A stretch of 46,103 nucleotides of DNA, from positions 1 through 46,103 of the forward strand of contig DAIENX010000016.1 in assembly GCA_027340875.1 (NCBI GenBank). The letters run 5' to 3'. The stretch is from Elusimicrobiota bacterium (GTDB lineage: Bacteria; Elusimicrobiota; Elusimicrobia; Elusimicrobiales; UBA9959). Below the pieces are notes generated by a model. It worked only from the letters and a program-made list of their open reading frames with translations. It made no database searches and was not told the origin of the DNA. Positions 3-30,023 of this stretch are shown here, piece by piece (positions within the stretch are counted from its first letter, which is position 1; each line of letters opens with the position of its first letter). The translations under genes and the position numbers were made by a program.

Positions 3-953
3 CGGCCGGCGCGGACTTCCGAGAAGGTCGTTTCGTACAAGAGGTTCCCGCGCGGGACCTGGGCCAGGCAGGTGCAGTTCAACGAGGGGGTTTTCGCGGA
101 AAGGCCTTCCATGGGGGTGCACGAGTTCCTGGCCGGCCGCGAGGATATCCTGCCCCTGTTGCGGCGCGTCGGAGAGAAGAGCTTCCTGGAGGATTTCCTC
201 TACAGGGAGACTTCCCGCGGCCTCGAGGAGACCGCCGGCGCCCTGGGGCTGACCCTGGACGAGGCCGGCAGGATCATGGACTTCGTTAACGAGTTCCATC
301 TCAAGCGGGAGATAGAGGGCGGCGGCGCTCCCGCCGCTTTGCCGGACGCTCTCAAGGAGCGCGGAGCCGACACGCCGGTGGCCCAGATCTACGCGGAAGG
401 CGGGAACATAACCCTGTCCTACCTCTCCCTTTCTTCCGCCCGGGGCCGCTACGAGATAGATTATGCGCGGCTTAAGGCGCTGGAAAGGACGCTTCCGACG
501 GAAAGGAAAAAGCGTCTCCGCGGCTTGATAGGCAAGATGGAGCTGGCCAATATGCGCAAGGGCGTTCTCCACAATATCCTGCTGCAGCTGATAGACTGCC
601 AGCATAAATACCTGATCACCGAGGAGGAGGACGACATAAAGCCGGTCTCGCAGCGCGAGATAGCCCGTACGCTGGCGATAAATTCCGGGGTGTTGAACCG
701 CATCGTTTCGGGCAAATCCCTCGCGCTGGCGTCGGGGCGCGCGGTGCCGATGGGCTCGCTGTTCCTTTCCCGGAAGGACTGGATGAAGGCGGCGCTGGGC
801 AGGCTGCTGGCCGAGCGCGGCGGCGAGTCCCCCGCGGACGGGGAGCTGGCCGCTCTCCTGCGCGAAAGGACCGGCGTCCGGGTCTCCCGCCGCTCGGTGA
901 ACGATTACCGCAGGGAGATAGCCGGGAAACTGCCGGGGAAGAGGGTCCGCTGA
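3..953 (+). CDS. Divergent sigma-54 (RpoN)-like factor, 5' end truncated by window edge
   Basis: Frame is open from position 3. HTH-like segment IKPVSQREIARTLAINSGVLNRIVSGK resembles RpoN LKPLTLxDIAxxLxxHESTxSRxxxxK. C-terminal VSRRSVNDYR resembles the RpoN box ARRTVAKYR. Abuts a kinase and an NtrC-type regulator. Confidence 0.75.
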   Translation, partial: RPARTSEKVVSYKRFPRGTWARQVQFNEGVFAERPSMGVHEFLAGREDILPLLRRVGEKSFLEDFLYRETSRGLEETAGALGLTLDEAGRIMDFVNEFHLKREIEGGGAPAALPDALKERGADTPVAQIYAEGGNITLSYLSLSSARGRYEIDYARLKALERTLPTERKKRLRGLIGKMELANMRKGVLHNILLQLIDCQHKYLITEEEDDIKPVSQREIARTLAINSGVLNRIVSGKSLALASGRAVPMGSLFLSRKDWMKAALGRLLAERGGESPADGELAALLRERTGVRVSRRSVNDYRREIAGKLPGKRVR

Positions 954-954
954 T

Positions 955-2415: not shown

Positions 2416-3795
2416 ATGAAAAAAAGAGTGCTTGTAGTCGACGACGAGGACCTTATCCGCTGGTCGCTCAAGGACGAGCTGACGCGGGAGGGGTATACCG
2501 TGCTGAGCGTGGGCACGGCGGCCGAGGCCATTGAGCAGCTTTCCCGGGGCGGCGTGGACGTCACCATCTCCGACATCAATCTGGGCGACGGCAGCGGCCT
2601 GGACATCCTCAGGTACGCCAGGGAGAACCTGCCGTCCATGCCGGTGGTGCTGATGACGGCCTACGGCGACGTGAACGGCGCTGTGGACGCGATGCGCAGC
2701 GGCGCGGCCCACTACATCTCCAAGCCCTTCGACCTGTCAGTGCTGCGCATGGAGCTGGAAAAGGTGTGCGAGACCAGCAGCCTCCGGGACCAGGTGCTCG
2801 ACACGCAGGAGCGGCGCCGGCGCCGCTACAACTTCGGCTCCATAATAACCGGCGACGAGGGCATGAAGCGCGTTATCTCCGAGGCGGTCATGATGGCGGC
2901 CAATCCTTCCGCCACCGTGCTGATACAGGGCGAAAGCGGCACCGGCAAGGACCTGATGGCGCGGGCGCTGCATTACGAAAGCCCGAGGGCGGGCAAGCCG
3001 TTCCTCGAGATAAGCTGCACGGCCATCCCGGAGAACCTGCTGGAGAGCGAGCTGTTCGGCTACGAGAAGGGGGCCTTCACGGACGCCAAAGGGCAGAAGA
3101 AGGGCTTCTTCGACACCGCCGACGGCGGCACCGTGTTCCTCAACGAGATAGGCCACATGCCGCTGACCCTGCAGGCCAAGCTGCTGCGGGTGATAGAGGA
3201 CAAGGTGTTCATGCGGCTGGGCGGCACCGAGGAGACCGCCTGCGACGTGCGCATCATAGCGGCCACCAACGAGGACCTGCAGGAGGCCGTCAGGAAGGGC
3301 GGCTTCAGGGGGGACCTGTATTTCAGGCTTAACGTCCTGTCCGTCAGCCTGCCGCCGCTCAGGGAGCGCAAGGGGGACATACTGCCCCTGGCCGGGCATT
3401 TCCTGGCCCGCTTCAGCGGGGAGATGCGCAAGGACGTCCCGGTCCTTTCGGAGGAGGCGCAGGCCGTGATGACGGCCTATCGCTGGCCCGGCAACATCAG
3501 GGAGCTGCGCAACGTGATGGAGCGGGTGATGATACTCGGCGCGGGCAGGGAGATAGCCGGCGTATGGATGCGGGAACAGATAGGAAAGACCTCCGGCCTG
3601 GGCGCCGCCCCGTCCGGAGAGGTCTGCTTCAGGCTGCCGCCGGAGGGGATCTCGCTGGAAGCTGTAGAGAAGGACTTCATCAGGCAGGCCCTGGAATCTG
3701 CCGGCGGCAACCAGGTGAAAGCGGCGCGCCTCCTGGGCATCAGCCGGGACGCCTTGCGCTACCGGCTGGAAAAGCACGGGCTGCGCTATTCCTGA
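2416..3795 (+). CDS. Sigma-54-dependent response regulator (NtrC/AtoC family: receiver, AAA+, Fis-type HTH)
   Basis: VLVVDDE receiver, GESGTGKD Walker A, ELFGYEKGAFTDA, WPGNIRELRN, C-terminal NQVKAARLLGISRDALRYRL. Confidence 0.95.
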   Translation: MKKRVLVVDDEDLIRWSLKDELTREGYTVLSVGTAAEAIEQLSRGGVDVTISDINLGDGSGLDILRYARENLPSMPVVLMTAYGDVNGAVDAMRSGAAHYISKPFDLSVLRMELEKVCETSSLRDQVLDTQERRRRRYNFGSIITGDEGMKRVISEAVMMAANPSATVLIQGESGTGKDLMARALHYESPRAGKPFLEISCTAIPENLLESELFGYEKGAFTDAKGQKKGFFDTADGGTVFLNEIGHMPLTLQAKLLRVIEDKVFMRLGGTEETACDVRIIAATNEDLQEAVRKGGFRGDLYFRLNVLSVSLPPLRERKGDILPLAGHFLARFSGEMRKDVPVLSEEAQAVMTAYRWPGNIRELRNVMERVMILGAGREIAGVWMREQIGKTSGLGAAPSGEVCFRLPPEGISLEAVEKDFIRQALESAGGNQVKAARLLGISRDALRYRLEKHGLRYS

Positions 3796-3814: not shown

Positions 3815-3829
3815 TGGCAGGGTTGCTGC
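3815..3829 (+). promoter_or_regulatory. Sigma-54-like -24/-12 element TGGCAGGGTTGCTGC
   Basis: GG-N10-GC spacing; intergenic, just upstream of ATG 3875; same motif recurs at 7553, 12362 and 20874. Confidence 0.7.
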
Positions 3830-3874: not shown

Positions 3875-5188
3875 ATGCGTATCCAGCGTTATATCCCGAT
3901 CATGCTCCTGCTGTGCGCCGCCGCGCGCGGCCGGGCGGCCGCGGCGCCGGTTTCACCTGACGTTATAACCACTACGCCCGCCTGCGTGGAGTGCCATAAG
4001 AAGGTGGTCTCGTCCAAGTTCACGCACGGTCCGGTCGGAGTGAAAATGTGCAGGGTGTGCCACTCGGACGAGAAACCGGCACAGGACCCCGCGAAGCATC
4101 ATGTCTTCTCGTTCCCGAAGCCGCAGCCGGAACTGTGCCTGGAATGCCACGTGGACGTGCGCGAGAGCCTCAGGTCCGGCAAGATGACGCACGGCGCCAT
4201 CGAGGCCGGCGGCTGCACTTCCTGCCACGATCCGCACGGCTCCGGCCAGAAGTTCTTCCTGCGCGGGGAGAACATGGACGCGCTCTGTTCCAACTGCCAC
4301 GGGAAAAAGACCGGCGGCGCCGTGGTCCACCGGCCGGTGAAGGCCTCGTGCATGCTGTGCCACGAGCCGCACGCGTCCGGCGGCAGCCACCTTCTCAAGA
4401 CCGACACCCCGGAACTCTGCCTGGGCTGCCACCAGCAGGTGAAGACGGAGCTTTCCGGCAAGTACGTCCACGGCCCGGTGCAGACCGGCTGCCAGACCTG
4501 CCATGACCCGCACAGCGCGCCCAAGCCGTACCTGCTGAAGTCCGACGCGAAGAAGGAGCTCTGCCTGGGCTGCCACGCGGACATGGCCAAGGCGCTGAAG
4601 AACGCCAAGCGCCCGCACCCCGCCGTGGAATCGGCCGGCTGCATCGGCTGCCACAGCCCCCACGCGTCGGGGCAGCCGAAGATGCTGCTGAAGCCGATGA
4701 AGGAGCTCTGCCTGGGCTGCCACGCGGACAAGGCCGCGGAGCTGGGCAGCAAGTTCCTGCACGGCCCGGTGCGCCTGAACGAATGCCAGGGCTGCCATGA
4801 CCCGCACGGGGCGGACAACCCCAACATCCTCAAGGAATATTTCCCGGAGGACTTCTACAACTCGTACAAGGAAGGCCTGTACGCCCTGTGCTTCGAATGC
4901 CACGAGAAGAACATCGCCAGCGAACCCAGGACCGCCAAGCTGACCAACTTCCGCAACGGCGACGTGAACCTGCATTACGTCCACGTCCATTCCGAGAAGG
5001 GACGCAGCTGCAAAGCGTGCCACCAGGTGCACGGCGGCCGCCAGGAGAAGCACGTCCGGGAGAGCGTGCCGTTCGGCTCCTGGCCGCTGCCCATCGTGTA
5101 CAGGAAGACCGCCACCGGCGGCAGCTGCAACGTCGGCTGCCATAACCCCAAGTCCTACGACCGCGTGAAAGAGGTGGAGAACAAATGA
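3875..5188 (+). CDS. Exported multiheme cytochrome c (14 CxxCH plus one CX3CH; doubled-CxxCH repeat type)
   Basis: Signal peptide; repeated HGPV...CxxCHxPH...LCxxCH units; terminal CNVGCH. Confidence 0.93.
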   Translation: MRIQRYIPIMLLLCAAARGRAAAAPVSPDVITTTPACVECHKKVVSSKFTHGPVGVKMCRVCHSDEKPAQDPAKHHVFSFPKPQPELCLECHVDVRESLRSGKMTHGAIEAGGCTSCHDPHGSGQKFFLRGENMDALCSNCHGKKTGGAVVHRPVKASCMLCHEPHASGGSHLLKTDTPELCLGCHQQVKTELSGKYVHGPVQTGCQTCHDPHSAPKPYLLKSDAKKELCLGCHADMAKALKNAKRPHPAVESAGCIGCHSPHASGQPKMLLKPMKELCLGCHADKAAELGSKFLHGPVRLNECQGCHDPHGADNPNILKEYFPEDFYNSYKEGLYALCFECHEKNIASEPRTAKLTNFRNGDVNLHYVHVHSEKGRSCKACHQVHGGRQEKHVRESVPFGSWPLPIVYRKTATGGSCNVGCHNPKSYDRVKEVENK

Positions 5189-6153
5189 GATACATCGTAA
5201 GAGCGTTCGTCGTGCTGGCCTTCGGCCTGCCGTTCTGCGCGGGCGTCTCCCGCTGCGAAGCCAACCCGCTGCGGAACCTGGAACTGGGGGCCGCCGCTTT
5301 CCCGTTCTCCCTGCCGGACACGAACGGGAACGCGGTAAGCCTGGACAAGTTCAAGGGGCGGCCCGTGGTGGTCTGTTACTGGCGTGAAGGCCAGTTCTAC
5401 TCCAAAAAGATGCTCGAGGTCATGACGCGCGCGCAGGCCAAGTTCGGCGGCAAGGGCGTGGAGTTCCTCTCCATCACAAGGACCGCGGGCGCCGAAGCCC
5501 CAAAGGTGTCCACGATGCCTTTCCCGGTGCTGCTGGACGACCAGGAGAAGGTCTACGGGGATTACGGCCTGTTCATACTGCCTACCACGTTCGTGCTGGA
5601 CGGCGGGCACCGCCTCAAGGCTTATTTTTCCAGCTACCAGGAGGAGTCCGGACCGGAGCTGGACAAGATACTGTCGGAGATGCTCGGCCTAAAGGCGACG
5701 CCGGCGCCCGCCCCGCGCTACGCGGCGGTGCAGGGCATGGCTGACCCGGAGCTCAACCTCGCCCGCGAGCTGCTGAAGGAGGGCAAGGCTGCCGAGGCCC
5801 TGCCGCTGCTGGAGAAAGGGCTGCGCGGCGCGGCGTCAGGCGACGCCGCGGAGCTGAAGCTGCTGTCCGCCCAGGCGCTGATGCAGCTGTCGCGCCTGGA
5901 GGAGGCCAAAGCGAGGCTGGAGGGCTGCCTGAAGGACGATCCCGCCTCGCACGAGGCGCAGCTGCTGCTGGGCAGGACCCTTTTCCTGATGGGCCGCTAC
6001 GAGCCCGCGGAAGAGGCCCTCAAAAAGTCCATGGGCCTGAACCCGCATTCCGAAAAGGCGCATTATTACCTCGGGGAGCTGTATGAGAAGACAGGCCGCA
6101 AAGATCTGGCGCTGGCCGAATACCGCGCGGCGCTTGAGCGTATATACAGGTAG
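5185..6153 (+). CDS. Exported redoxin/thioredoxin-fold plus TPR protein lacking CxxC
   Basis: AFPFSLPDTNGNAVSLDKFKGRPVVV...FPVLLD...YG...LPTTFVLD redoxin pattern; C-terminal TPRs (AHYYLGELY). Start overlaps the upstream stop (ATGA). Confidence 0.8.
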   Translation: MRYIVRAFVVLAFGLPFCAGVSRCEANPLRNLELGAAAFPFSLPDTNGNAVSLDKFKGRPVVVCYWREGQFYSKKMLEVMTRAQAKFGGKGVEFLSITRTAGAEAPKVSTMPFPVLLDDQEKVYGDYGLFILPTTFVLDGGHRLKAYFSSYQEESGPELDKILSEMLGLKATPAPAPRYAAVQGMADPELNLARELLKEGKAAEALPLLEKGLRGAASGDAAELKLLSAQALMQLSRLEEAKARLEGCLKDDPASHEAQLLLGRTLFLMGRYEPAEEALKKSMGLNPHSEKAHYYLGELYEKTGRKDLALAEYRAALERIYR

Positions 6154-6664
6154 CGCCGCCGCGCTGCTGCTGGCCGGCTGCCTGGCGTCCGTCCGCCTGG
6201 CTTCCGTGCACGCGCCCTACGGGCGGCATAATTGCGAGGCCTGCCACGACGTGGGCGGCACGCTGGCCAGGGGGGTTTCGGCCTCTTCCTATTCGGACCG
6301 CGTGAAGGAAGAGGCCGCCGGCGGGGACTATTCCCTTTCGCCCGGCGAGGAAGTCCCCTCGCTTCTCCGCTACCGGGTGGACAGGCTTTGTTTCCAGTGC
6401 CACCGGGAGCTGGACCCGGCCTCTCCGGGCTACGAGGGGAAATGGCTGCACGGTCCGTTCCAGGCCGGCGTGTGCCTGGCCTGCCATCAACCGCACGAAT
6501 CCGCGAACCCCCGTCTTCTGGTGGCCTATCCGGTGGAGAAGCTCTGTTCCATGTGCCATTCCGGGTTCCACGGCAAGGAGGGGGCCTCCCGTTATCCCGG
6601 GAAGCCATGCCTGGCCTGCCATTCCCCGCATTCCCAGGAGAAAGCCGCCAGGACCCCGGACTGA
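6134..6664 (+). CDS. Pentaheme cytochrome c, probable lipoprotein
   Basis: Five CxxCH motifs; LLLAGC lipobox-like sequence. Start uncertain: TTG 6134 chosen, ORF track starts at 6083. Confidence 0.82.
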   Translation: MSVYTGSAAALLLAGCLASVRLASVHAPYGRHNCEACHDVGGTLARGVSASSYSDRVKEEAAGGDYSLSPGEEVPSLLRYRVDRLCFQCHRELDPASPGYEGKWLHGPFQAGVCLACHQPHESANPRLLVAYPVEKLCSMCHSGFHGKEGASRYPGKPCLACHSPHSQEKAARTPD

Positions 6665-6669
6665 GGGGG

Positions 6670-7434
6670 TTATTTCAGTTTTTTCAGGCTTTCCCGCACC
6701 TGTATGGTGAACGGATGCGCCGGTCCCAGCGCTTTTTCCGCCAGGGCCAGGGCCGTCTTGTACCGCGCGCGGGCCTCGGCCGGCCTGTCCAGGTCGCGGT
6801 AAAGGTCGCCCAGATTGCTCAGCGTGATGGCCATGTTGGGGTTGCCGTGGCCGAAGCTGCCGCCGCAGAGGTCTACGGCCCTCTTGAAAAGAGCCTCGGC
6901 GCGCGCGGGGTCCTTGCGCTGGTGGCAGACCTTCGCCAGGTTGTTCAGCGTGGCGACCACGTCGGAGATGTCGGCTCCGGGGGTCTTGTCGTAATAGGAG
7001 AGGGTGGTCTCGAAGGCTTTCTGGGCCGCCTCCAGCTTGCCTTCTTTCTGGTAAACGGCTCCCAGATTGTTCAGCGCGGTCATGGCCTGGGCCGAGGTCT
7101 CGCCGTAGGATTTCGCCGCCAGGGAGAACACCTCGCCGGCCAGCGGCTCGGCGGCGGAGAAATCGCCGCGGTCATAGTACAGCTTGGCGAGCAGGCCGAC
7201 GTTGCCGGCCAGCCGGATGTCTCCGGACCGGAAGATCTTCCTGGCCAGTTTCAGCGCTTTCCCGGCCTCCTGCACGGCCATCTCTCCCTGTCCATGCTTC
7301 GAATATACCGCGGCTTTATCCATGCTCTCCTGCCAGGCCGGCAGGTCCTTTTCGCTGTTCACGCAGGCGGAAAGCGCCAGGATGATGATAGCCGGGACTA
7401 GAGCGGCGCGGTAGCGGATGTTATAAGAGGGCAT
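6670..7434 (-). CDS. TPR-repeat lipoprotein (kinesin-light-chain-like TPRs)
   Basis: LALSAC lipobox; repeats ALNNLGAVY, TLNNLAKV, TLSNLGDLY; AAGGAG RBS upstream on the minus strand. Confidence 0.85.
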   Translation of the reverse strand: MPSYNIRYRAALVPAIIILALSACVNSEKDLPAWQESMDKAAVYSKHGQGEMAVQEAGKALKLARKIFRSGDIRLAGNVGLLAKLYYDRGDFSAAEPLAGEVFSLAAKSYGETSAQAMTALNNLGAVYQKEGKLEAAQKAFETTLSYYDKTPGADISDVVATLNNLAKVCHQRKDPARAEALFKRAVDLCGGSFGHGNPNMAITLSNLGDLYRDLDRPAEARARYKTALALAEKALGPAHPFTIQVRESLKKLK

Positions 7435-7552: not shown

Positions 7553-7569
7553 TGGCAGCATTGCTGCCA
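7553..7569. promoter_or_regulatory. Palindromic TGGCAGCATTGCTGCCA, matching the -24/-12-like motif on both strands between divergent genes
   Basis: Reverse complement is TGGCAGCAATGCTGCCA; lies between starts at 7434 (-) and 7589 (+). Confidence 0.65.
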
Positions 7570-7588: not shown

Positions 7589-7963
7589 ATGCTGTCTATA
7601 TTGATCGTGGACGATGAGCCGCTGATAAACTGGTCGCTGGGCCAGGTCTTCGAAGGCGCCGGCTACGCCGTGACCCTGGCCGAAAGCGGCGAGGAGGCCG
7701 AGGCGCTGGCCATGGCCGGCCGTTTCGACGTGGTATTGACGGACGTTAAGATGAAAGGCATGACCGGGTTCGAGCTCCTCCGGCGGCTGAAAGCGGGCCT
7801 TCCGGGGGTCAAGGTGGTCCTGATGACGGCTTTCTCCGGAGAGGCGGAAAAGGACGCCTCCTTACGGGAAGGCGCCGACGATTTCATACGCAAGCCTTTC
7901 AATGTGGCGGAGGTGGTCCAGCGGGTGCGGGCGCTGCTCGCAGGGGCGGAGTGCGCGTTTTAA
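7589..7963 (+). CDS. Single-domain response regulator (receiver)
   Basis: ILIVDDE, DVVLTDVKM, LMTAF and FIRKPF receiver motifs. Confidence 0.9.
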   Translation: MLSILIVDDEPLINWSLGQVFEGAGYAVTLAESGEEAEALAMAGRFDVVLTDVKMKGMTGFELLRRLKAGLPGVKVVLMTAFSGEAEKDASLREGADDFIRKPFNVAEVVQRVRALLAGAECAF

Positions 7964-8043
7964 CGCGATTTGCGTCAAATCGCGCATTGTTTGCTATGAT
8001 ATTACGGAAATTCCGTGCATCTGTGATCTGGAGCCGACCTTCC

Positions 8044-10164: not shown

Positions 10165-10274
10165 GACCGGCCGGGGCGCCGGAATATGACGCCGATCGCG
10201 GAGCCTGCGGTCCCTTGACAACGGCGCGGCCGCGGGGGTATACTTCGCTAAGAACGCGCCGTACCGGAGGAGCG

Positions 10275-19577: not shown

Positions 19578-19598
19578 GGTTTGGCCGGAGGAACGCGC

Positions 19599-20873: not shown

Positions 20874-20888
20874 TGGCAGGAATGCTGC
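20874..20888 (+). promoter_or_regulatory. Sigma-54-like -24/-12 element TGGCAGGAATGCTGC
   Basis: GG-N10-GC, upstream of the OmcE-like gene at 20969. Confidence 0.7.
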
Positions 20889-20968: not shown

Positions 20969-21628
20969 ATGAAAAAGGCGAAAATCGCGGGTCTGCTGAT
21001 AGCGATCTGCGCGATAACCACCGGTGTACAGCCGCTTCATGCTGCCATTGCCGGTTCAAAGCACGACTTCCGCCAGACCGGCGGTGGTTTTCCGATAACC
21101 GGCGTCACCGAGATGTGCGTGACCTGCCATGTGCCGCACAGGCCTCTGGTCAATGTTCCCCTGTGGAATCACTCGATCAGCTCGTATACCTACACGCTCT
21201 ACAACCAGAACGCCGAGTACGCTTCCGGCAACAGCGCGGCTTACGACGCTTCCCCCAGCGGCCTGCAGAACTCCAAGTCCAGGCTGTGCATGTCCTGCCA
21301 TGACGGTTCCGTCGCCGTGGCCAGCTCGGTGAAGATACAGAGCGCTTCCAACAACTGGATCCTCTGGGACAACGGCGCGGCCGTGGCCAACGGCTCCGGC
21401 ACCGGCAACACCGGCATGAAGGGCTCCCACCCCGTGGCCGTCAACTACGCCACCGTGCAGACCGCCAACCCCACTGATTACGTGGCGGCCGCCAGCCTCG
21501 TGGACGTGAAACTCGACGCCGGCAAAGTGCAGTGCACCACCTGCCACAACCCGCACAACAAGTACAACAAGATGCTCGTGGCGGACAACGCCGGCAGCGC
21601 GCTGTGCCTTAAGTGCCACATAAAGTAA
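20969..21628 (+). CDS. Tetraheme OmcE-family extracellular cytochrome c (copy 2; candidate major filament subunit)
   Basis: AIAGSKHDF...CVTCHVPH...VPLWNH...SRLCMSCHDG...HPV...VQCTTCHNPH...AGSALCLKCHIK; strong GGAGGAG RBS; strongly C-ending codons. Confidence 0.9.
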   Translation: MKKAKIAGLLIAICAITTGVQPLHAAIAGSKHDFRQTGGGFPITGVTEMCVTCHVPHRPLVNVPLWNHSISSYTYTLYNQNAEYASGNSAAYDASPSGLQNSKSRLCMSCHDGSVAVASSVKIQSASNNWILWDNGAAVANGSGTGNTGMKGSHPVAVNYATVQTANPTDYVAAASLVDVKLDAGKVQCTTCHNPHNKYNKMLVADNAGSALCLKCHIK

Positions 21629-21788: not shown

Positions 21789-22811
21789 ATGAAAAAACTG
21801 CTGCTCTGTCTTCTTCTTGTCCCGCTTGCCATCGGCCCGGCCGCGGCCGGGGAGAAGCCGGTCTGGCCGGCTCCGCCGGACAAGCCGCGTATAGAGTATC
21901 TGGAAACCCTGACGGCCGGCAAGAGGGCGGACGGAAAGCGCGGGAAATTCGGGAAAATGCTGGATTTCCTGCTGGGCGTGGTGTCGGGCGGCCGCTCCGA
22001 GCAGGAGTTCTTGCGGCCTACCGGCATATGGGTCACCGAGAACGCGGTTTTCGTCGCGGATCCGGGCGTCGGCCGCGTCATGGTGCGCGACAAGGCTTCC
22101 GGGAAGTCCCGTTGGGTGCCGTCCGCCAGGCGGCACAGGATGCCGTTCCCGGTGGGCGTGGCGGTAGCGCCGGACGGCAGGCTTTTCGTAAGCGATCCGG
22201 AGCTGGGAGGGGTTTCGGTCTTTGATCCGGAAGGAAAGCCCCTTCCCGGGCTGGCGGCGCCTCCGCAGGGGTTCCAGCGCCCTACCGGCCTGGCCCTGGA
22301 CGCGAAGCTCTCGCGGCTCTACGTGTCCGACACCGGCACGCATTCCGTTTCCGCCTACGGCCTGGATGGCCGCTATCTTTTCACTTTCGGAGGCCGGGGC
22401 GGCGGCGCCGGGGAGCTGAACTACCCCACCTATCTCTGGGCCGACTCCGGCACCGGGAGGGTGCTGGTCTGTGATTCCGGGAATTTCCGGGTCAGGATAT
22501 TCGACCCGGAGGGCAAGCCCGCCGGAGGTTTCGGGGAGATGGGCGACAGGCCCGGGTATCTGGCCAGGCCCAGAGGCATAGCCGCCGATTCTGACGGCGA
22601 CGTCTATTCGGTCGACGGGGCGCTGGAGGCGGTGCAGATCTTCGACGAAAAGGGCCGGCTGCTGCTGTACTTCGGGGAGAGCGGCGGCGCGCCGGGTTAT
22701 TTCTCGATGCCGGGAGGGATATTCGTGGACGGACAGGACAGGATATACGTGGCGGATTCGTTCAACTCCCGGGTGCAGGTTTTCCAGTACCTCAAGGCGG
22801 ACGCACGATGA
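21789..22811 (+). CDS. Exported NHL-repeat beta-propeller (copy 4)
   Basis: VWPAPPDKPRI, NHL repeats, RVQVFQYLK; closest to copy 3 (shared NYPTYLWAD, CDSGNFRV). Confidence 0.92.
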   Translation: MKKLLLCLLLVPLAIGPAAAGEKPVWPAPPDKPRIEYLETLTAGKRADGKRGKFGKMLDFLLGVVSGGRSEQEFLRPTGIWVTENAVFVADPGVGRVMVRDKASGKSRWVPSARRHRMPFPVGVAVAPDGRLFVSDPELGGVSVFDPEGKPLPGLAAPPQGFQRPTGLALDAKLSRLYVSDTGTHSVSAYGLDGRYLFTFGGRGGGAGELNYPTYLWADSGTGRVLVCDSGNFRVRIFDPEGKPAGGFGEMGDRPGYLARPRGIAADSDGDVYSVDGALEAVQIFDEKGRLLLYFGESGGAPGYFSMPGGIFVDGQDRIYVADSFNSRVQVFQYLKADAR

Positions 22812-24715
22812 GCGCGCTTTCCAGGACCATACTTTTCCCGGCGGCCTTGCTGGCCTTCGCCGCGGCCCCGTGCCGCGCAGCCTCCATAGTGAACTCCAAG
22901 CACGACATGTCCTCGCTGTCGGCCACCACCGGGCCCAAGTCGCTCTCCACCAGCGAGCGCTGCGTTTTCTGCCATACTCCGCACAGGGCCGGCGTGAACG
23001 TGCCGCTCTGGAACCAGTCGGTCACCACCCAGACCTTCACTTTCTATTCCTCCAACTACGTCAACACCTACCTGGGCATGGCCGTCCCGACCATGGCGAA
23101 GCTGGCCGGCTCCCGCACCAAGCTCTGCCTCTCCTGCCACGACGGCATGACCGCGCCCGGCAGCGTGTTCAATCTGGGCGGGACCGGCGGCCGGCTGAAC
23201 ATGAGCGGTCCGCTGGGCTCCGCTTCCACCCTCGGCGTGAACCTGGCCGACGACCACCCGGTCCTTTACGGCGTAAACCCGGGCGCGGGTCCCCCGGTCC
23301 AGCCGGGGACCGACCCCGAGATACAGCTGCCGCCCGCCGGGGACAAGGTAAAGGTGTACGGCGCGGAGAACCTGGTGGAATGCACCTCCTGCCATAACCC
23401 GCACGATAACCAATACGGCCATTTCCTGGTCAAGTCCAACGCCAACGGCGCGCTCTGCACCACCTGCCATTACAAGACCGGCTTCTCCGCCAGCGCGCAT
23501 AAGCTGTCGGCCGTCTCCTATACTCCGCCCGGGGAGAGCCCCACCACCGTGGGCGAGTGGGCCTGCCGCGACTGCCACCGTTCGCACGGGGCGTCCTCGG
23601 TGCAGGCTTACCTGCTGAGCGGCGCGGAAGAGGCCACTTGTTACGCCTGCCACGGCAATCCGCCGCTTACCGGGGCCAGGAACCTGAAACTTACCGTAGG
23701 CAAAGCCTACAAGCACCCGGTTGAGACCGTCTCCGGCAGGCACAAGGACCCGGAGACGGATGGCGCCAATTTTACGTATTCGCCGCTCAACAACAGGCAT
23801 GCGGAATGCCAGGACTGCCATAATCCGCATCAGGCCAAGTCCGGCACGCATGTCGCCCCGACCAACGTCATTTCCAGCGTCCTGCTGGGCCAGTGGGGCG
23901 TGGAACCGGCCTACGGCACGGCCAGCTGGACGCAGCCCACCAGCTATTCCAGGAAGGTATTCGCCGACACGCTGAACTACAGGGAATACCAGCTCTGTCT
24001 CAAATGCCATTCCTCGTACGCGTTCGGGACTACGCCCCCGCCCGGAATAACGGACCAGTCGATAGAACTGAGCATAAATAACCGCGGCGCCCATCCGGTG
24101 ATACGGGGGCTTAACAGCCAGACCGGCAGCACCAGCCCCAAGCCGCTGGCGGCCAACCAGCTTTCCAGCCCCTGGTCCGCCGCGCGCGGAACGCAGACCA
24201 TGTACTGCTCGGACTGCCACGGCCCGGACAGCACAACGGATCCCAAGGGTCCGCACGGTTCCGCCGGAGAACACATCTTGTCCGGGCCGAACGTCTACTG
24301 GCCCAGGAAACCCGGGGGGGCGCTCTACACTCTGGACGACTTCCCCGGGGGGAACAACTCCGGCGCCAACACCTCGGCCGGCCTGTTCTGCCTGAACTGC
24401 CACCCGATGTACTCCGGAACCAGTTTCTTCAACAACGTCCACATGGAGCATAATCAGAAGAATCAGGGCGTTACTCATGCCTGCGTCGGCTGCCATCAGG
24501 TGATCCCGCACGGCTCAAAACGCTCCCGGCTTATAGGCTATGCCTCCGACCAGGCGCCTTACAACTATAACGGGACGGGGGCGTTCGATAAGCTGGTCCT
24601 GTCCGGGTTCAAGAAGGCGACCAGCCCTACCGGTTATGTGAAAACGAACTGCTACGCTCCTGTTTCCGGTTGCAGCAGCGAGCACGGGATCAACTCGGGC
24701 GGATATGATCCATGA
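22808..24715 (+). CDS. 11-heme cytochrome c with N-terminal OmcE-like tetraheme domain (copy 2)
   Basis: SIVNSKHDMSS...CVFCHTPH...VPLWN...CLSCHDG...NLADDHPV...VECTSCHNPHDN; 11 CxxCH; paralog of 14223-16103. Confidence 0.92.
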   Translation: MSALSRTILFPAALLAFAAAPCRAASIVNSKHDMSSLSATTGPKSLSTSERCVFCHTPHRAGVNVPLWNQSVTTQTFTFYSSNYVNTYLGMAVPTMAKLAGSRTKLCLSCHDGMTAPGSVFNLGGTGGRLNMSGPLGSASTLGVNLADDHPVLYGVNPGAGPPVQPGTDPEIQLPPAGDKVKVYGAENLVECTSCHNPHDNQYGHFLVKSNANGALCTTCHYKTGFSASAHKLSAVSYTPPGESPTTVGEWACRDCHRSHGASSVQAYLLSGAEEATCYACHGNPPLTGARNLKLTVGKAYKHPVETVSGRHKDPETDGANFTYSPLNNRHAECQDCHNPHQAKSGTHVAPTNVISSVLLGQWGVEPAYGTASWTQPTSYSRKVFADTLNYREYQLCLKCHSSYAFGTTPPPGITDQSIELSINNRGAHPVIRGLNSQTGSTSPKPLAANQLSSPWSAARGTQTMYCSDCHGPDSTTDPKGPHGSAGEHILSGPNVYWPRKPGGALYTLDDFPGGNNSGANTSAGLFCLNCHPMYSGTSFFNNVHMEHNQKNQGVTHACVGCHQVIPHGSKRSRLIGYASDQAPYNYNGTGAFDKLVLSGFKKATSPTGYVKTNCYAPVSGCSSEHGINSGGYDP

Positions 24716-26007
24716 GAAAGCTGCTGGTCTCGCCCCGCACGGCGCTGGCGCTGATGGGGGCGATAGCGGCGGCCTGCTGCGCGGCTTCCTTCGTGCCGCA
24801 GATAGCCGACAGCAGCCCGGCCGTTATCGGGGCTTGGAGGAGTGCCAGCCCGCTGACTTACCGGCTGGCCGGGGTCCTGCGGCTTGACAGGATATATACT
24901 TCTCCATGGTTCCTGCTGCTGGTAGCCGCGGCCGGCGTGGTGCTTGCCTATTCGGTCCGGCTGCAGTTCCGCGGCTGCCTTTCCGGCCTGGCCGGGAGCG
25001 GCGCGCCGGCGGTCCAGTTCCCGGGCCAGGGGCGCTTGTCCGCGGCGCTGTCAGCCAGAGGGTATTCCATGCTTCCGGCATCGGCAGGAGAGGCCCGTTT
25101 CGCGGCCAACAGGCCTGGTCGGTGGGGCTCGCCTGTCTTTCATCTCGGGCTGCTGCTGGTGATAGTCGCCGCCTTCCTGACGTTCGCGTTCCAGCAGAGA
25201 GGCTTCGTGCAGCTGATAGAGGGCGAGGTCTTCGACGGCGCCGCCGCCGATTTCCTTACCGTGAACAATGGGCCGCTGGCCGGCCGCTTTTTGGTGCCGT
25301 TCAGCCTGCGCATGAACAAACTGGAGCAGGCATACTGGGGGAACGGACAACCCAGGGATTTCGGCAGCCGGGTGGACTTCCTGGAGGAAAGCGGCAGGCC
25401 GGCGCCGGCTCTGATCTCGGTAAACAACCCCTTCCGCCGGCGCGGCGTGACGGTGTACCAGTCGCCCTATTACGGCTACAGCGTGTCGCTGGCGCTGAAA
25501 AGACCGGCCGGCGCGGAAACGCTGACGCATTTCCTGCTGGACAGGGCCGCCGTCCCTTCGAGGCCTGCGGTCGGTGGGGCGGATTTCCCCGGTACGGGCT
25601 ATCTTTTCTGGCTCGAATTCCTGCCGGACGCGGCCGGACGGTCGTTCTTCGTGAAGGACCCGGTACTGAAGGCCCGCGTGACGGAAGGCGGCCGCGTGGT
25701 CTTCGACGGCCCCGTTCCGATGGACGGCACGGTGCGGGTCGGAGCGGATTCCCTGCGCGTGGCGGCCGTACGCGGCTGGAGCGGGCTCGTGTTCGTCCGC
25801 GACAGGTGGCAGGGGCTGGCGTACGCGGGACTGGGGCTTTGCGTCCTGGGGGCCGCGCTGATGTTCCTGCTGCCGTATCGCGAGCTGGCCGTGGCGCTTC
25901 CGGACGCCGGCGAAGCTGTGGTCCGGGCGGTTTCGGGCAGGGAGATGGACCTGCTGCGTGAAGAGGCGCGCGACATAGAGGCTGAACTTAAAAAATGGAA
26001 GGAATGA
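24712..26007 (+). CDS. resB: Cytochrome c biogenesis protein ResB/CcsB-like (system II)
   Basis: IYTSPWF, FHLGLLLVIV, ISVNNPF...VYQ motifs, C-terminal TM; coupled to ccsA. Confidence 0.85.
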   Translation: MRKLLVSPRTALALMGAIAAACCAASFVPQIADSSPAVIGAWRSASPLTYRLAGVLRLDRIYTSPWFLLLVAAAGVVLAYSVRLQFRGCLSGLAGSGAPAVQFPGQGRLSAALSARGYSMLPASAGEARFAANRPGRWGSPVFHLGLLLVIVAAFLTFAFQQRGFVQLIEGEVFDGAAADFLTVNNGPLAGRFLVPFSLRMNKLEQAYWGNGQPRDFGSRVDFLEESGRPAPALISVNNPFRRRGVTVYQSPYYGYSVSLALKRPAGAETLTHFLLDRAAVPSRPAVGGADFPGTGYLFWLEFLPDAAGRSFFVKDPVLKARVTEGGRVVFDGPVPMDGTVRVGADSLRVAAVRGWSGLVFVRDRWQGLAYAGLGLCVLGAALMFLLPYRELAVALPDAGEAVVRAVSGREMDLLREEARDIEAELKKWKE

Positions 26008-26819
26008 CCCCTCTTAAGGCCGGGATACTGCTGCACTGGGCCGCGGTGACGCTCTATATACTCTCTACGGTGGCCTACGCGGCCGCAGCGACTTTTTCCC
26101 GTGAGAGCCTGCTGAAGAAGGGCTGGTGGCTGGCGCTGGCCGGACTTCTGCCGCACAGCGCCGCCCTGGCGCTGCGCTGGTACGCCACCGGGCACGGCCC
26201 GTACATGGCGAAATACGAGGTGTTCTCTTCCAACGCCTGGGTGGCCGTACTCATGTTCCTGGTATTCTCCAAAAAGATACCGCGCCTCAGGGCGGCCGGT
26301 TACGTGGTGCTGCCCGCTTCCTTCCTGATGATGACGGCAGGCTTGTTCACAAGCCCGGAGCTGCGTTTTCTGCCGCCGTCGCTCAGGAGCTTCTGGCTGG
26401 TGCTGCATACGGTGTTCGCCAAACTGGCCGTCGGAGGCATACTCATCGCGGTGGGGGCCTCCATCCTGTACCTGGTCAGGGAAAGGAAGGGCGGCGCGGA
26501 GGCGGCCTCCCTCCCGGCGCTGGACGACTATGCCGGCCGTTTCGCCGGCTTCGGCTTCATTTTCTGGACCATCATGACGGCCGCCGGCGCCATCTGGGCC
26601 AATGAGACCTGGGGCCGCTACTGGGGCTGGGACCCCATAGAGACCTGGTCCCTCATCACCTGGCTGCTTTTCGGCTCCTACCTGCACGGCCGCCGCTCCC
26701 TGGGCTGGCGCGGCGGGAAGGCCGCCTGGGTATTGCTCGGCTGCTTTGTCCTGTCGCTGGCCACGGTGTTCGTCATCCCGTTCGTCTTCGACACGCTCCA
26801 CGGGGAGTACTTCAGATGA
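26004..26819 (+). CDS. ccsA: Cytochrome c biogenesis protein CcsA/ResC (system II heme lyase)
   Basis: GAIWANETWGRYWGWDPIETWSLITW WWD motif, WLVLH, terminal LH. ATG 26004 overlaps the resB stop; 25995 is also possible. Confidence 0.93.
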   Translation: MTPLKAGILLHWAAVTLYILSTVAYAAAATFSRESLLKKGWWLALAGLLPHSAALALRWYATGHGPYMAKYEVFSSNAWVAVLMFLVFSKKIPRLRAAGYVVLPASFLMMTAGLFTSPELRFLPPSLRSFWLVLHTVFAKLAVGGILIAVGASILYLVRERKGGAEAASLPALDDYAGRFAGFGFIFWTIMTAAGAIWANETWGRYWGWDPIETWSLITWLLFGSYLHGRRSLGWRGGKAAWVLLGCFVLSLATVFVIPFVFDTLHGEYFR

Positions 26820-28327
26820 AGGCCAAGGTCCTGCTGATGACGCCGCCCTATCACTGCGGCGTGGTGGAAGCCGCCGGCACCTGGGTGCCGCTGGCGCTGG
26901 CGTCCGTGGCCGGCGGCCTCTCCCGCGCCGGCTACGAGGTGGAGATCTACGACGCGATGGCCAAGTACTCGGACTGGGCCGCTATCGAGGAGAAGCTCAG
27001 GTCCTCGAACCCCGACTTCGTGGGGACCACGGCCTTCACGGCCACGGTCAACGACGCCGTCAGGGCGCTGGCGCTGGCCAAGCGCGTCAAGCCGGGCGTG
27101 GTAACGTTGCTGGGCGGCATCCATCCCAACTTCCAGTGGAAGGAGCTCCTCGAGGCGGAGGATTCGCCGGTGGATTACGTGGTCAGGGGGGAGGGCGAGG
27201 TGACGGCGCCCCGCCTGCTGGACGCCATAACCTGCGGGGAGCCGCCGGAGCGCGTGCGGGGGATAGCGCTGCGCGACGCTTCCGGCAGGGCCTTCGCCAC
27301 GGCATCCAGGCCGCTGATAGAGGACCTCGACGCCCACCCGGCCGCGTGGGAGCTGCTCGACTGGAAGGACTACACTTTCTATCCCCGGCCCGGCTCCGTC
27401 TCGGGCCTGATCTCCTCGTCGCGCGGCTGCACCGAGGCCTGCTCCTTCTGCAGCCAGCAGAAGTTCTGGTCCCAGAGCTGGAGGGCGAAGTCCCCGGAGG
27501 CCTTCGTCGGCGAGATAGAGCTGCTGCGCAAGGAGTTCGGCGTCTCCATAGCGATGGTCGCCGACGAGACGCCCACCAAGGACCGCGCGCGCTGGCGCAG
27601 GATACTGGACCTGCTGATAGCCAGGAAGCTCGACTTCGAGCTGATGCTGGAGACCCGCGTGGACGATATCCTGCGCGACCGCGACTGGCTGGACGACTAC
27701 CGGCGGGCGGGCATAATGCACATTTACGTGGGGGTGGAATCCGGCTCGCAGGAGACGCTGGATACCTTCAAGAAGAACCTTAAGACGGAGCAGTCCAAAG
27801 AGGCCATAAAGCTGATAAACGAGGCCGGGATAATCAGCGAAACGGCCTTCGTGCTGGGCATGCCGGGGGAGACGCCGGAGTCCATACGGCGCACCACGGA
27901 CCTGGCCCTGGAGTACGGTCCCGACATGGCCTTCTTCATGGCCATAGCCCCGTGGCCGTATTCCGACATCTACAGGGAGCTCAAGCCCCTGGTGGAGACG
28001 GACGACTACTCGCTCTACAACCTGGTGCGCGCCGTGGTCAAGCCCAGGGCGATGACCCGCGCCGAGGTGGAGGCGGAGCTGGCCTCCGCCTTCAGGAAAT
28101 TCTACATGCACCGGCTCAAAGGGCTGGAGAAAATGCCGCCCTTCAAGCGGGAGTACATGCTTGCCGTGACCAGGCTGCTGGCCTCGCATTCCTATCTCAA
28201 GGAGCAGATGAAGGGGATGGGCGGCTCGGCCGGCATGCCGGAGGAAGTGCGGCGCGCTCTCGGCGCGGCCGGCGTCGCGCTCACGGAGGCGGCGCGGCCG
28301 GTCTCCGCGGATAAAAAACATGCGTGA
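26816..28327 (+). CDS. Cobalamin-binding radical SAM enzyme (BchE / class B methyltransferase-like)
   Basis: N-terminal B12-binding domain (PLALASVAG...LGGIHP...VVRGEGE), SSRGCTEACSFC CxxxCxxC, GVESGS. Confidence 0.9.
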   Translation: MKAKVLLMTPPYHCGVVEAAGTWVPLALASVAGGLSRAGYEVEIYDAMAKYSDWAAIEEKLRSSNPDFVGTTAFTATVNDAVRALALAKRVKPGVVTLLGGIHPNFQWKELLEAEDSPVDYVVRGEGEVTAPRLLDAITCGEPPERVRGIALRDASGRAFATASRPLIEDLDAHPAAWELLDWKDYTFYPRPGSVSGLISSSRGCTEACSFCSQQKFWSQSWRAKSPEAFVGEIELLRKEFGVSIAMVADETPTKDRARWRRILDLLIARKLDFELMLETRVDDILRDRDWLDDYRRAGIMHIYVGVESGSQETLDTFKKNLKTEQSKEAIKLINEAGIISETAFVLGMPGETPESIRRTTDLALEYGPDMAFFMAIAPWPYSDIYRELKPLVETDDYSLYNLVRAVVKPRAMTRAEVEAELASAFRKFYMHRLKGLEKMPPFKREYMLAVTRLLASHSYLKEQMKGMGGSAGMPEEVRRALGAAGVALTEAARPVSADKKHA

Positions 28328-30023
28328 GCCGCGTCCCGGCAGGCCGTGGCGCGCCTGCGCCCTGGCGGTCACCGCTTCATTGGCCGTCTGCGCCGCTTCC
28401 GCCAGCGGCGGGCAATACCATTATTCCGGCAAGCTGGACTGGAAGTTCGAGAGCGTGGCGGTGAAGACCCCCTCGGGGAAGACCTCCACCTCCATGGGCT
28501 CCCATGCCTATAGCCTGAACCTGGACGGGCCTCTGGGCTCGCCTCTCATCGGCACGGGGAACCTCGGGCTGACGTGGCAGGGGGGCAAGAGCCTCTCCAA
28601 CGTGGTGGCGGCCAGGAAGTCGTCGCAGGAGCTGACCGGATATAACTTCGGGGCCACGCTGCTGCCGCCGCCGCTGAGAAGGTTCGTCAATATCTCCCCC
28701 AACTTCAGCAGGAACGTCAATAAGACGTCCTGGGGCGACGGCGCGCTGCACAGCATAACGGACACCGCCTCCGGGGTCACGGCCGGGCTTACCCTGCCGA
28801 AACTCCCCGCCTATTCCGTCACCTACCAGAAGCTCAGGCGTACAGACGACAGCAGCTACGCCGCCGACCAGGAGACGGACATCATCGACGAGCGGGCGTT
28901 CTACACGAAGGACGTGCTGCGCGTGGAATATCAGCGCCGGCGGCAGCGGACGCGCGACCTGCTGGGTAATTCGCCGGAAAATTCGCAGGACACGGTGAAC
29001 TCCAACGTGGATCTGAACGACGCGGATTTCAACAAGCTGGGCCTGCGGTCGTATTTCCTGAGGGTATCTTACGCCGGCCAGACCAACCGCTCGGCCGGCA
29101 AGATCAGGCAAAGCGGCATCTCCACTATCCTGAACCTCACGTCCAAGACCGCGAGGACCGGCAAGATCGAGTCCTATCTGGGTTACACTCAGGGGCTGAA
29201 CAGGGACCTCATCTCCAAGGCGCAGACCTCCAACGCTGATATTGCCGTCTTCAGTTCCCTGCGCGGGTCCAGCGGGACCATAAACAACCAGCTGCGGTTC
29301 AGGGACGCTGACGGGCCAAACGGGACGGACCATTCGCTCAGCGACAACCTGAACTCCGACGTCACGTTCTTCAACGGTCTGGCCGGCCACCGGCTGCAGC
29401 TCGCGGAAACGCTCTCGTGGGGGGCGCAGGGCAGCCGGGGCACGGACCTGATAGAGCAGCGCATCTCGGTATATCCGGCGGCGAAGTACGATCTTTATTC
29501 CGACCAGCGCTATTCCGCCTCCCGCTCCGCCGCGGACGGGCCGCAGAGCCAGGGGCTGGGCTGGGGCGTGGGGGCGAACTGGCGGCCGGCGTTCTACGCG
29601 CGCGCCAACGCGAGCTATCAGAAGGACCTGAACTCCGACCTCGTGAAGGCGCAAAGGAGCGGCGCCGAGTCCGTGAGCCTGAAACTTTCGGCGGAGCCGG
29701 CGGCGGGGCTCTCCACCAGCCTGACCTACGCCCTTTATTCCAATCGCTCCGTGCAGGTCAGGTCGAGGAACGGCACGTTGTCGATAGAGTCCAGCTACTT
29801 CGTGACCCCGGCCATGGCGCTCAGCGGCAACCTGTACCGGACCGACGCGCGCCAGCGCTTCCGGCCGGACGGCGGGCGGACCAGGTCGGTTTCCCTGGAT
29901 TACAGCATGAGGATGACCTATAGCATAGGCCGCACCACGCTTTCCCTGCTGTACGAATCCAGGGAGGCATCGGTGTTCAACGCCTATTCCCGTTTCGGGG
30001 CTTTCCTGAGCCGCGCGCTATAG
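28320..30023 (+). CDS. Putative outer-membrane beta-barrel protein (copy 2)
   Basis: Paralog of 16171-17844 (SGKLDW/SGRLGW, YSLNLDGP/YNLNLRGP, GLTLP, ESYLGY, NWRP, YSR); amphipathic strands. Confidence 0.72.
   Translation: MREPRPGRPWRACALAVTASLAVCAASASGGQYHYSGKLDWKFESVAVKTPSGKTSTSMGSHAYSLNLDGPLGSPLIGTGNLGLTWQGGKSLSNVVAARKSSQELTGYNFGATLLPPPLRRFVNISPNFSRNVNKTSWGDGALHSITDTASGVTAGLTLPKLPAYSVTYQKLRRTDDSSYAADQETDIIDERAFYTKDVLRVEYQRRRQRTRDLLGNSPENSQDTVNSNVDLNDADFNKLGLRSYFLRVSYAGQTNRSAGKIRQSGISTILNLTSKTARTGKIESYLGYTQGLNRDLISKAQTSNADIAVFSSLRGSSGTINNQLRFRDADGPNGTDHSLSDNLNSDVTFFNGLAGHRLQLAETLSWGAQGSRGTDLIEQRISVYPAAKYDLYSDQRYSASRSAADGPQSQGLGWGVGANWRPAFYARANASYQKDLNSDLVKAQRSGAESVSLKLSAEPAAGLSTSLTYALYSNRSVQVRSRNGTLSIESSYFVTPAMALSGNLYRTDARQRFRPDGGRTRSVSLDYSMRMTYSIGRTTLSLLYESREASVFNAYSRFGAFLSRAL

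Follow-up and report, generated by a model that had tools for sequence, protein, structure and literature searches.

The 46,103-nucleotide contig DAIENX010000016.1 (assembly GCA_027340875.1), hereafter the window, raises the question of whether a bacterium of the phylum Elusimicrobiota carries, at positions 3-30023, the genes for an extracellular cytochrome filament of the OmcE type, as proposed in an earlier note on this DNA. The window is an entire contig of a metagenome-assembled genome (MAG; 2.8 Mb in 112 contigs, 92% complete, 5.5% contamination, guanine-cytosine (GC) content 63.6%). We annotated it with Pfam and NCBIfam (TIGR) profiles and by counting CxxCH motifs, lipoboxes and signal peptides being judged by eye, and recovered in the 30-kb region, which we call the island, the inventory listed in the earlier note: eight multihaem cytochromes, four NHL propellers, two barrels, hemA, ResB/CcsA and a regulatory trio. 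On balance, we favour reading the island as a gene cluster for OmcE-type extracellular cytochromes ('nanowires'), present as an accessory block in an Elusimicrobiota lineage. Below, G000 designates the host MAG and the other G-numbers other Elusimicrobiota genomes; L-numbers designate the genome and metagenome loci used for comparison, and C-numbers contigs.

The proteins that bear directly on this question are encoded by five genes, the 3' end of one of which is also found as a remnant copy:

10215-10838, plus strand: three-haem OmcE-like variant with an N-terminal hydrophobic anchor (3 CxxCH)
12466-13101 (longer open reading frame from 12388), plus strand: OmcE-family tetrahaem subunit candidate, module A (9YUQ, E = 4.5e-12; 7TFS, 6.5e-09)
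14223-16103, plus strand: 11-haem cytochrome, residues 27-220 OmcE-like, tail C-X6-C-X3-H (7TFS, 3.6e-29; Foldseek match to 7TFS, 1.3e-4)
18158-18272, plus strand: remnant copy of the 3' end of the 10215-10838 gene (94% over 35 residues)
20969-21628 (longer open reading frame from 20855), plus strand: OmcE-family tetrahaem subunit candidate, module B (7TFS, 2.8e-16; 9YUQ, 1e-14)
22808-24715, plus strand: 11-haem cytochrome with an OmcE-like N-terminal domain, paralogue of the 14223-16103 product at 65-66% identity (11 CxxCH)

The two tetrahaem products are secreted proteins of about 200 residues with four CxxCH motifs each, and PDB sequence searches aligned both over their full length with the solved OmcE filaments 7TFS and 9YUQ, the former being that of G. 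sulfurreducens and the latter the OmcE bundle of D. soudanensis WTL (PMC13712944; this and the other papers cited are quoted from excerpts). For comparison, the short tetrahaem protein of a locus from the genus Geobacter matches 7TFS with an E-value of 9.8e-16. The strongest OmcE match in the island is given by the N-terminal part of the 11-haem protein, as is also the case in the Geobacter-genus locus, whose 11-haem protein reaches 7.1e-29. The AlphaFold2 model of the island 11-haem protein is poor (predicted local distance difference test score (pLDDT) of 59), and its only significant fold match in the PDB is 7TFS; apart from this match, the fold search with the model carries no information. 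The claim of OmcE homology is thus borne out by sequence and, for the N-terminal part of the 11-haem protein, by fold as well. The starts at 12466 and 20969 are also those of the database forms, of 211 and 219 residues (homologues at 45-82% identity in the same search). No OmcS structure was matched by the island proteins in the PDB sequence searches.

The haem ligands are conserved as well. The four CxxCH motifs and four further histidines, H32, H57, H154 and H196, show no variation in either of two alignments, of 37 and 24 homologues, and the conserved CxxCH motifs and histidines of the tetrahaem protein align with those of 7TFS. In the filaments, one haem of each subunit needs a histidine from the neighbouring subunit (PMC13712944), and we infer that the histidine of the N-terminal arm is this inter-subunit donor. 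The 11-haem family is characterized by 11 CxxCH motifs and at least 11 further invariant histidines (48 sequences). A CX3CH motif, a possible twelfth haem site, is found in 51 of the 67 C-terminal tails of 11-haem proteins from loci L010-L097; in several members from Pseudomonadota the tail ends in long poly-Gly runs.

The motif order of OmcE had been assigned to all five proteins. It is present in four of them, the fifth, encoded at 10215-10838, being a degenerate three-haem form that lacks the histidine of the N-terminal arm, the first CxxCH, the PLW motif and the histidine after the third CxxCH. Such a unit could accept the histidine of a neighbour and could not donate one. We considered that the gene might be a pseudogene and rejected this, since the congener G353 has retained a counterpart, 40% identical, in which the same three sites are present; both proteins show the same losses and a hydrophobic N-terminal segment. 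The remnant is a 115-bp copy of the 3' end of this gene (10730-10844) located between barrel A and the end of hemA; its cross-match to the congener G023 is 89.6% identical at the DNA level, and it records an earlier duplication or insertion event.

The five genes are embedded in two paralogous modules. Module A consists of the tetrahaem OmcE-like protein, an NHL propeller, the 11-haem protein and a 557-residue barrel; module B consists of the tetrahaem protein, an NHL propeller, the 11-haem protein, ResB, CcsA, a BchE-like B12 radical SAM enzyme and a 567-residue barrel. Between modules, the tetrahaem proteins are 47-48% identical, the propellers 54% and the barrels 34%. All OmcE-like genes of the host genome are confined to the window contig.

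This gene content can be set against that of known clusters. The smallest omcE clusters comprise OmcE, two multihaem cytochromes, two beta-propeller lipoproteins and a large barrel (Petersen et al. 2026, mBio, PMC13712944); beside its OmcE homologues, the island has four NHL propellers, two barrels and six further multihaem genes. The propellers, together with the genes for maturation, haem synthesis and accessory proteins, are as follows:

5185-6153, plus strand: fusion of an AhpC/TSA (ResA-like) thiol-disulfide oxidoreductase with TPR (Pfam, NCBIfam)
6083-6664, plus strand: pentahaem cytochrome with an LLAGC lipobox (5 CxxCH)
6670-7434, minus strand: TPR protein with an LSAC lipobox
9118-10164, plus strand: NHL propeller 1
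11187-12248, plus strand: NHL propeller 2
13174-14226, plus strand: NHL propeller 3
18300-19577, minus strand: hemA, glutamyl-tRNA reductase (TIGR01035, 417.7 bits, cut-off 209.55)
19599-20495, minus strand: CcsB/CcsA-like protein (PF01578, 97 bits; TIGR03144, 123.7 bits, below cut-off)
21789-22811, plus strand: NHL propeller 4
24712-26007, plus strand: ResB, System II cytochrome c maturation (PF05140, 119.7 bits)
25995-26819, plus strand: CcsA/CcsB (PF01578, 125.1 bits; TIGR03144, 165.7 bits)
26816-28327, plus strand: BchE-like B12-binding radical SAM enzyme (TIGR02026, 384.6 bits, cut-off 481.35)

The four propellers match the Pfam NHL family with E-values of 1e-27 to 1e-36. Almost every gene lies on the plus strand. 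The open reading frames 6232-7401 and 18411-20438 (both plus strand) were discarded as spurious: they have no family match and overlap supported genes.

In a locus from the genus Geobacter (L017), the order is OmcE-like protein, NHL propeller, 5-haem lipoprotein, a gap devoid of island matches, NHL propeller, 11-haem and 13-haem proteins. Five island protein families have counterparts there at 30-40% identity: the 14-haem protein of the island, for instance, is 39% identical to the 13-haem protein, and the island pentahaem protein 30% identical to the 5-haem lipoprotein. The island barrel has no detectable counterpart in L017. More generally, of the 72 genome loci that contain an OmcE-like gene, 70 also have an NHL gene, and in various phyla the short subunit comes together with the 11-haem protein: 64 short OmcE-domain open reading frames (58 with four and 6 with five CxxCH) and 60 long ones (55 with 11) were counted in 71 of these loci. 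When metagenome loci are added (151 loci in total), 138 contain an open reading frame best-matching the NHL propeller and 130 one best-matching the 11-haem protein; these metagenome loci were recovered by scanning with an alignment of 24 homologues, a single-protein query having given no match. Database records label the OmcE-like loci with a dozen or more phyla. The six short open reading frames with five CxxCH belong to L021, L037, L053, L068, L072 and L079; a five-haem OmcE-like family is mentioned by Petersen et al. (2026, PMC13712944).

The island therefore resembles the omcE cluster of Desulfuromonadia in its full-length homologous tetrahaem protein, propellers, large barrel and extra multihaem cytochromes, and resB/ccsB adjoin the region there too (PMC13712944). 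It differs in having two complete modules and the three-haem variant, in lacking glycosylation genes, in placing ResB, CcsA and the BchE-like enzyme within module B, in including hemA, the sigma-54-like/kinase/NtrC trio and four matching promoter motifs in the block, and in the 11-haem tail, which reads C-X6-C..H instead of CX3CH. A looser parallel is the osc operon of G. sulfurreducens, in which the filament cytochrome OmcS is encoded together with factors proposed to act in folding, secretion and morphology, and with a porin-like outer-membrane route (Shen et al. 2025, as cited in the excerpts of PMC13194489 and PMC13712944); OmcS is a hexahaem protein without sequence similarity to OmcE (PMC9473688). 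The omcE cluster type is already published and widespread, and the island is a variant of it: an enlarged, duplicated and recently exchanged version of the Geobacter OmcE filament cluster. Its novelty is accordingly lower than had been assumed, OmcE-like domains being present in many phyla and in 17 of the 401 Elusimicrobiota genomes drawn, where they are concentrated in two other families (4 of 10 and 9 of 47 genomes). The excerpts of Petersen et al. report omcE homologues in five phyla, Elusimicrobiota not among them (PMC13712944), and our literature search found no publication linking Elusimicrobiota with OmcE.

The closest clusters elsewhere are those of L093 and L095, two metagenome loci with about 50% identity. 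Together with G353, they share the order MtrA-like 11-haem protein, NHL, tetrahaem protein, NHL, 11-haem protein and, further on, barrel (26-74% protein identity), and L093 and G353 also have (ResB)-CcsA-BchE-like genes between the 11-haem protein and the barrel. L093 differs in its GC content (70.7%) and in its flanking genes, which are only about 30% identical to those of the host, and no regulatory trio is visible on the DNA available for L093, L095 and G353. The promoter motif described below is missing from all three clusters.

The BchE-like gene deserves attention in connection with the 11-haem tail. A BchE-like B12 radical SAM gene directly after CcsA recurs in L093 (17439-19313), L036 (19339-20478) and L178 (10141-11601); such recurrences in OmcE-type clusters of unrelated uncultured bacteria are 50-69% identical, with positional homologues in L093, G353 and L036. 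The variant tail, a C-X6/7-C motif followed by a histidine two or three residues on, is found in both window copies of the 11-haem protein, in G353, in L093 and in L095. Variant tail and BchE-like enzyme occur together in this genome, in G353 and in L093; L095 has the variant tail and no BchE-like enzyme within the available locus DNA, and in L036 the enzyme is present and the tail of the classified 11-haem open reading frame is normal. In Wolinella, unusual haem motifs are served by dedicated System II lyases. By analogy, a special maturation role for the unusual haem tail is plausible.

We next consider the parts of the island that recall porin-cytochrome systems:

3875-5188, plus strand: MtrA/DmsE-like periplasmic cytochrome, 14 CxxCH and one CX4CH (6R2Q chain A, 1.1e-16)
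7951-9033, plus strand: 11-haem MtrA-like cytochrome (11 CxxCH; 6R2Q chain A, 1.1e-11)
16171-17844, plus strand: 28-strand outer-membrane beta-barrel A (predicted structure)
28320-30023, plus strand: barrel B, paralogue of barrel A; the sole island gene that differs strongly from G023

The 14-haem protein scores 162.7 bits with TIGR03508, below the cut-off of 192; its CX4CH motif (CNVGCH, residue 418, near the C-terminus) is a possible fifteenth haem site. Barrel A has no Pfam or NCBIfam match and only 35 relatives among 1.84 billion representative proteins. Its model, built from an alignment of 21 relatives, has a pLDDT of 88.9 and 28 long strands; MtrB has 26. Foldseek returned only generic large barrels, the best template-modelling (TM) score in the PDB being 0.44 (TMq, 6R2Q chain B, i.e. 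MtrB), and the structural search of the Atlas gave TM scores of 0.84-0.86 to hypothetical clusters commonest in Thermodesulfobacteriota and Nitrospirota and of 0.55 to an MtrB/PioB-type cluster. Compared with MtrCAB of Shewanella (6R2Q), the likeness lies in the paired-CxxCH periplasmic cytochromes and in this best PDB match of the barrel; the differences are the strand number, the low TMq, the fact that neither barrel matches PF11854, and the lack of an MtrC/OmcA-type surface decahaem protein, a single island protein scoring with TIGR03507, at 42.6 bits against a cut-off of 209.3.

These parts also allow the island to be read as a porin-cytochrome conduit that functions without filaments: the barrels and the MtrA-like or 11-haem cytochromes would then form Mtr/Pcc wires, and the small OmcE-like proteins would be monomeric shuttles at the surface or in the periplasm. 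The MtrA matches and the MtrB-like scores of the barrel agree with this, as do the tetrahaem proteins, a diverged subfamily (see below) the polymerisation of which is deduced. It leaves unexplained, however, why none of the eight ligands, the arm histidine included, varies, just as in the two solved filaments, whose subunits contain a haem that depends on the next subunit's histidine (PMC13712944), and the missing surface decahaem protein and PF11854 match also tell against it. We hold a conduit of this kind to be unlikely.

Still more improbable is a cytochrome system that serves respiration or detoxification in the periplasm and has nothing to do with extracellular electron transfer. Many multihaem cytochromes are indeed periplasmic reductases, the roles of NHL proteins are varied, and parts of the 11-haem proteins give weak NrfH/NrfB-like scores; these scores, however, are far below the cut-offs and cover the haem motifs only, and the two dedicated outer-membrane barrels, together with the homology to extracellular filaments, point outward.

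Is the island really part of an Elusimicrobiota genome? Downstream of it, the window contains a C11 peptidase gene, guaA, guaB and further housekeeping genes. GuaB is 78-89% identical to the full-length copies of congeners and 56-58% to those of the rest of the order, and its named database matches, down to 77% identity, are all labelled Elusimicrobia, Elusimicrobiota or Elusimicrobiales, so that the host assignment, previously tentative, now has firm ground. With the tetrahaem protein as a query, a strong match was obtained in 1 of 24 congeners (G023) and in none of the 16 other genomes of the order; G006 gave a marginal match of 38 residues (E = 6.5e-4). A second congener, G353, came from a phylum-wide draw and carries a rearranged version (30-74% protein identity), which brings the cluster to 2 of 32 distinct congeners. 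The three island-less congeners examined all show an uninterrupted succession of a 368-residue gene, the C11 peptidase gene, guaA and guaB. The island is thus a discrete accessory block. Its insertion site lies between the C11 peptidase gene and guaA in G023, and between the 368-residue gene and the C11 peptidase gene in the host genome. No integrase, transposase or tRNA is among the Pfam hits of the island, no systematic search having been made for them, and no repeat was seen on reading its junctions. The C11 (clostripain-family) peptidase gene itself (30154-31554) has at least 13 paralogous matches on 11 other host contigs.

The comparison with G023 revealed an unusual pattern of divergence. 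Window positions 1-28000 differ from the G023 island (C154, 15367-45375) by 3 mismatches, and positions 28001-30007, which cover barrel B, by 329 positions, so that barrel B either lies outside the exchanged segment or evolves fast; the flanks of the two genomes are 84-92% identical. On the other side, contig C65 carries the left flank, overlaps window positions 1-141 exactly and holds the diverged 5' end of the sigma-54-like gene. We read this as an indication that both lineages already had the island, because its two ends are diverged, and that its core was swapped very recently between co-occurring populations.

An artefact of assembly or binning, by which the island of another organism had been joined to Elusimicrobiota DNA, was also considered. 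It is suggested by the contamination of the MAG, by the co-occurrence of two strains in one run and by the exact coincidence of the window start with the point at which identity to G023 rises to 100%. Yet in G023 the island is bordered, within a contig of 78 kb, by core genes on either side matching host contigs at 84-92%; GuaB, on the same contig as the window island, has the 78-89% identity to congeners given above; C65 continues the window across its start, with the diverged 5' end; and contigs produced by another assembler from public runs contain fragments of both arrangements (the two barrel-B variants in one run, the G023-type island-guaA joint in two others). In addition, the GC content of the island (59-67%) brackets that of the genome, and G353 is a third member of the genus with a diverged version. 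An artefact is extremely improbable. Six public runs contain the whole 12300-17900 stretch and are labelled mine drainage or sediment metagenome, which is a hint about habitat only; no RNA dataset is among the public runs containing the island.

The island also carries regulatory genes and candidate promoters of its own:

3-953, plus strand: sigma-54-like protein, C-terminal 316 of about 401 residues (PF04552, 33.9 bits; N-terminus on contig C65)
955-2412, plus strand: HAMP-HisKA-HATPase sensor kinase (Pfam)
2416-3795, plus strand: NtrC-type sigma-54-dependent response regulator (Sigma54_activat, 220.7 bits; REC, HTH_8)
3815-3829, plus strand: sigma-54-type motif TGGCAG-N4-GCTGC (GG-N10-GC), 5' of the 14-haem gene (motif scan)
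7553-7569, palindromic, no strand assigned: sigma-54-type motif copy between the divergent TPR and REC genes (motif scan)
7589-7963, plus strand: stand-alone receiver domain (Pfam)
12362-12376, plus strand: sigma-54-type motif, 5' of module A (motif scan)
20874-20888, plus strand: sigma-54-type motif, 5' of module B (motif scan)

The island had been credited with its own sigma factor. The kinase, the NtrC-type regulator and the DNA-binding domain of sigma-54 are there, but membership in the RpoN family is not: in the full 401-residue form present in G023, only the RpoN DNA-binding domain matches (PF04552, 33 bits), and TIGR02395 gives 40.2 bits against a cut-off of 277, so that the protein is only sigma-54-like. 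Sigma54_CBD (PF04963) was not found in the whole host genome, which is 92% complete. Congeners carry only paralogues of the sigma-54-like protein at 27-34% identity. A paralogous sigma-54-like/kinase/NtrC trio is encoded at C9:32405-35872 of the host genome, 31-36% identical to that of the island.

The canonical sequence TGGCAC-N5-TTGC, allowing two mismatches, is not enriched in the window (33 matches, 46.5 expected). The hits nevertheless led to the sequence TGGCAG-N4-GCTGC, the exact copies of which (at 3815, 7553, 12362 and 20874) are all intergenic, can be read on the plus strand and end 21-89 nt before one of four plus-strand gene runs. With at most one mismatch it occurs 10 times against 2.14 expected, a number reached by none of 100 shuffles; the motif having been read off the hits of the canonical scan, this enrichment is partly post hoc. 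The genome-wide count is a fairer control: the 2.8-Mb genome has 6 exact copies, 5 of them on the window contig. This suggests four island-specific promoter motifs of the sigma-54 type. Note that the motif positions 12362 and 20874 also account for the true starts of the tetrahaem genes being at 12466 and 20969.

The earlier description of the island as self-contained proved overstated, while its remark that no quinol-oxidising component could be recognised in the window holds. The island hemA is the only full-length copy found in the host genome, and hemC, hemB, hemE and hemH are on contig C14. Likely quinol-oxidising modules are found on C13 and C29. C13:1-13200 (L089) encodes two CbcL-like proteins, each composed of an 11-haem c domain and a cytochrome b561-type domain, along with a 13-haem NapC/NirT-like protein, an MtrA-like decahaem protein, unannotated proteins of 491 and 651 residues and a c554-like tetrahaem protein; C29:1-7400 (L090) encodes NrfD, an FeS protein, a tetrahaem protein and a second ResB/CcsA pair. 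A TatC gene lies within this second cytochrome locus (C13/C29). Within the genus, 4 of 25 genomes, host included, have a CbcL-like gene. We also entertained the idea that the island brought cytochrome c maturation to a lineage devoid of it, and rejected it: ResB-like genes occur in 20 of 24 congeners, besides the second pair on C29.

The same hardware could serve electron uptake, i.e. the oxidation of Fe(II) or reduced minerals or the acceptance of electrons from a partner cell. Gene content does not fix the direction, and MtrA/MtrB-like parts work in both directions in known systems (MtoAB/PioAB). The mine-drainage and sediment labels of the runs would fit, though these runs may be the very sources of the assemblies. 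The CbcL-like proteins, on the other hand, have homologues classed with both CbcL (reduction) and MtoC/MtrH (oxidation) (PMC6295460), and we regard uptake as a possibility to be reckoned with, albeit not a probable one.

Several points weigh against the reading of the island as an OmcE filament cluster of this lineage. Judged by sequence, the island tetrahaem proteins are a diverged OmcE subfamily: a rapid tree with SH-aLRT values only places them beside the N-terminal domains of the 11-haem proteins and apart from most short OmcE-like proteins, with weak support of 80-90. Filament formation is deduced from homology and conserved ligands alone, and what cytochrome filaments do in the physiology of the cell is itself a matter of dispute (PMC11077965). 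For the barrel, sequence relatives went undetected in 71 of the 72 OmcE-like genome loci, its equivalence to the Geobacter barrel being argued from position and fold class, and no lipobox was recognised by eye in the four island propellers, unlike those of L017. On the regulatory side, core-binding and activator-interacting regions are not detectable in the sigma-54-like protein, and the promoter motif is absent from the compared related clusters of other lineages. Finally, the host genome is a MAG with the contamination given above, and the public runs with the island carry a flag marking them as potential sources of the assemblies and hence are not independent of them.

Taking these points into account, we propose that an OmcE-type system would work as follows. 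The kinase/NtrC pair and the sigma-54-like protein would switch on the four promoters. To go by gene content, the island's own System II genes would mature haem and apocytochromes. Electrons would be drawn from the quinol pool by the CbcL-like or NrfD-type modules encoded outside the window; the MtrA-like cytochromes would carry them over the periplasm, and the 11-haem protein would take them through the outer membrane at the barrel. By homology with the OmcE of Geobacter and Desulfuromonas, the tetrahaem proteins would polymerise head to tail outside the cell, the N-terminal histidine of each reaching a haem of the next subunit.

More speculatively, OmcE-type wires might be three-part machines with a base that has escaped notice: an 11-haem unit would co-polymerise and plug the barrel, and the anchored three-haem variant would be a nucleator or terminator. 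In this subfamily, a dedicated ResB/CcsA pair and a BchE-like enzyme may mature the C-X6-C..H tail. We put this forward as a doubtful, tentative scheme. The 11-haem protein could co-polymerise with the tetrahaem protein as the first unit, linking the filament to periplasmic cytochromes, because its N-terminal part is a full OmcE module, donor histidine arm included. The three-haem variant could nucleate or terminate filaments because it cannot donate a histidine and is without one haem site.

If the favoured reading is true, Elusimicrobiota join the bacteria that may build cytochrome wires, and this lineage, as its sequences suggest, probably wires itself electrically to the outside of the cell. 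In the literature searched, the only link of the phylum with extracellular electron transfer is a pair of CbcL homologues in Elusimicrobia, listed in the table of a 2018 survey (PMC6295460, from excerpts). The cluster behaves as a transferable block, two co-occurring lineages whose flanks diverge by about 10% sharing 28 kb of near-identical DNA. It further provides three handles on the start, anchoring and regulation of such filaments: the OmcE-headed 11-haem protein, the three-haem variant and a compact four-promoter regulon of the sigma-54 type.

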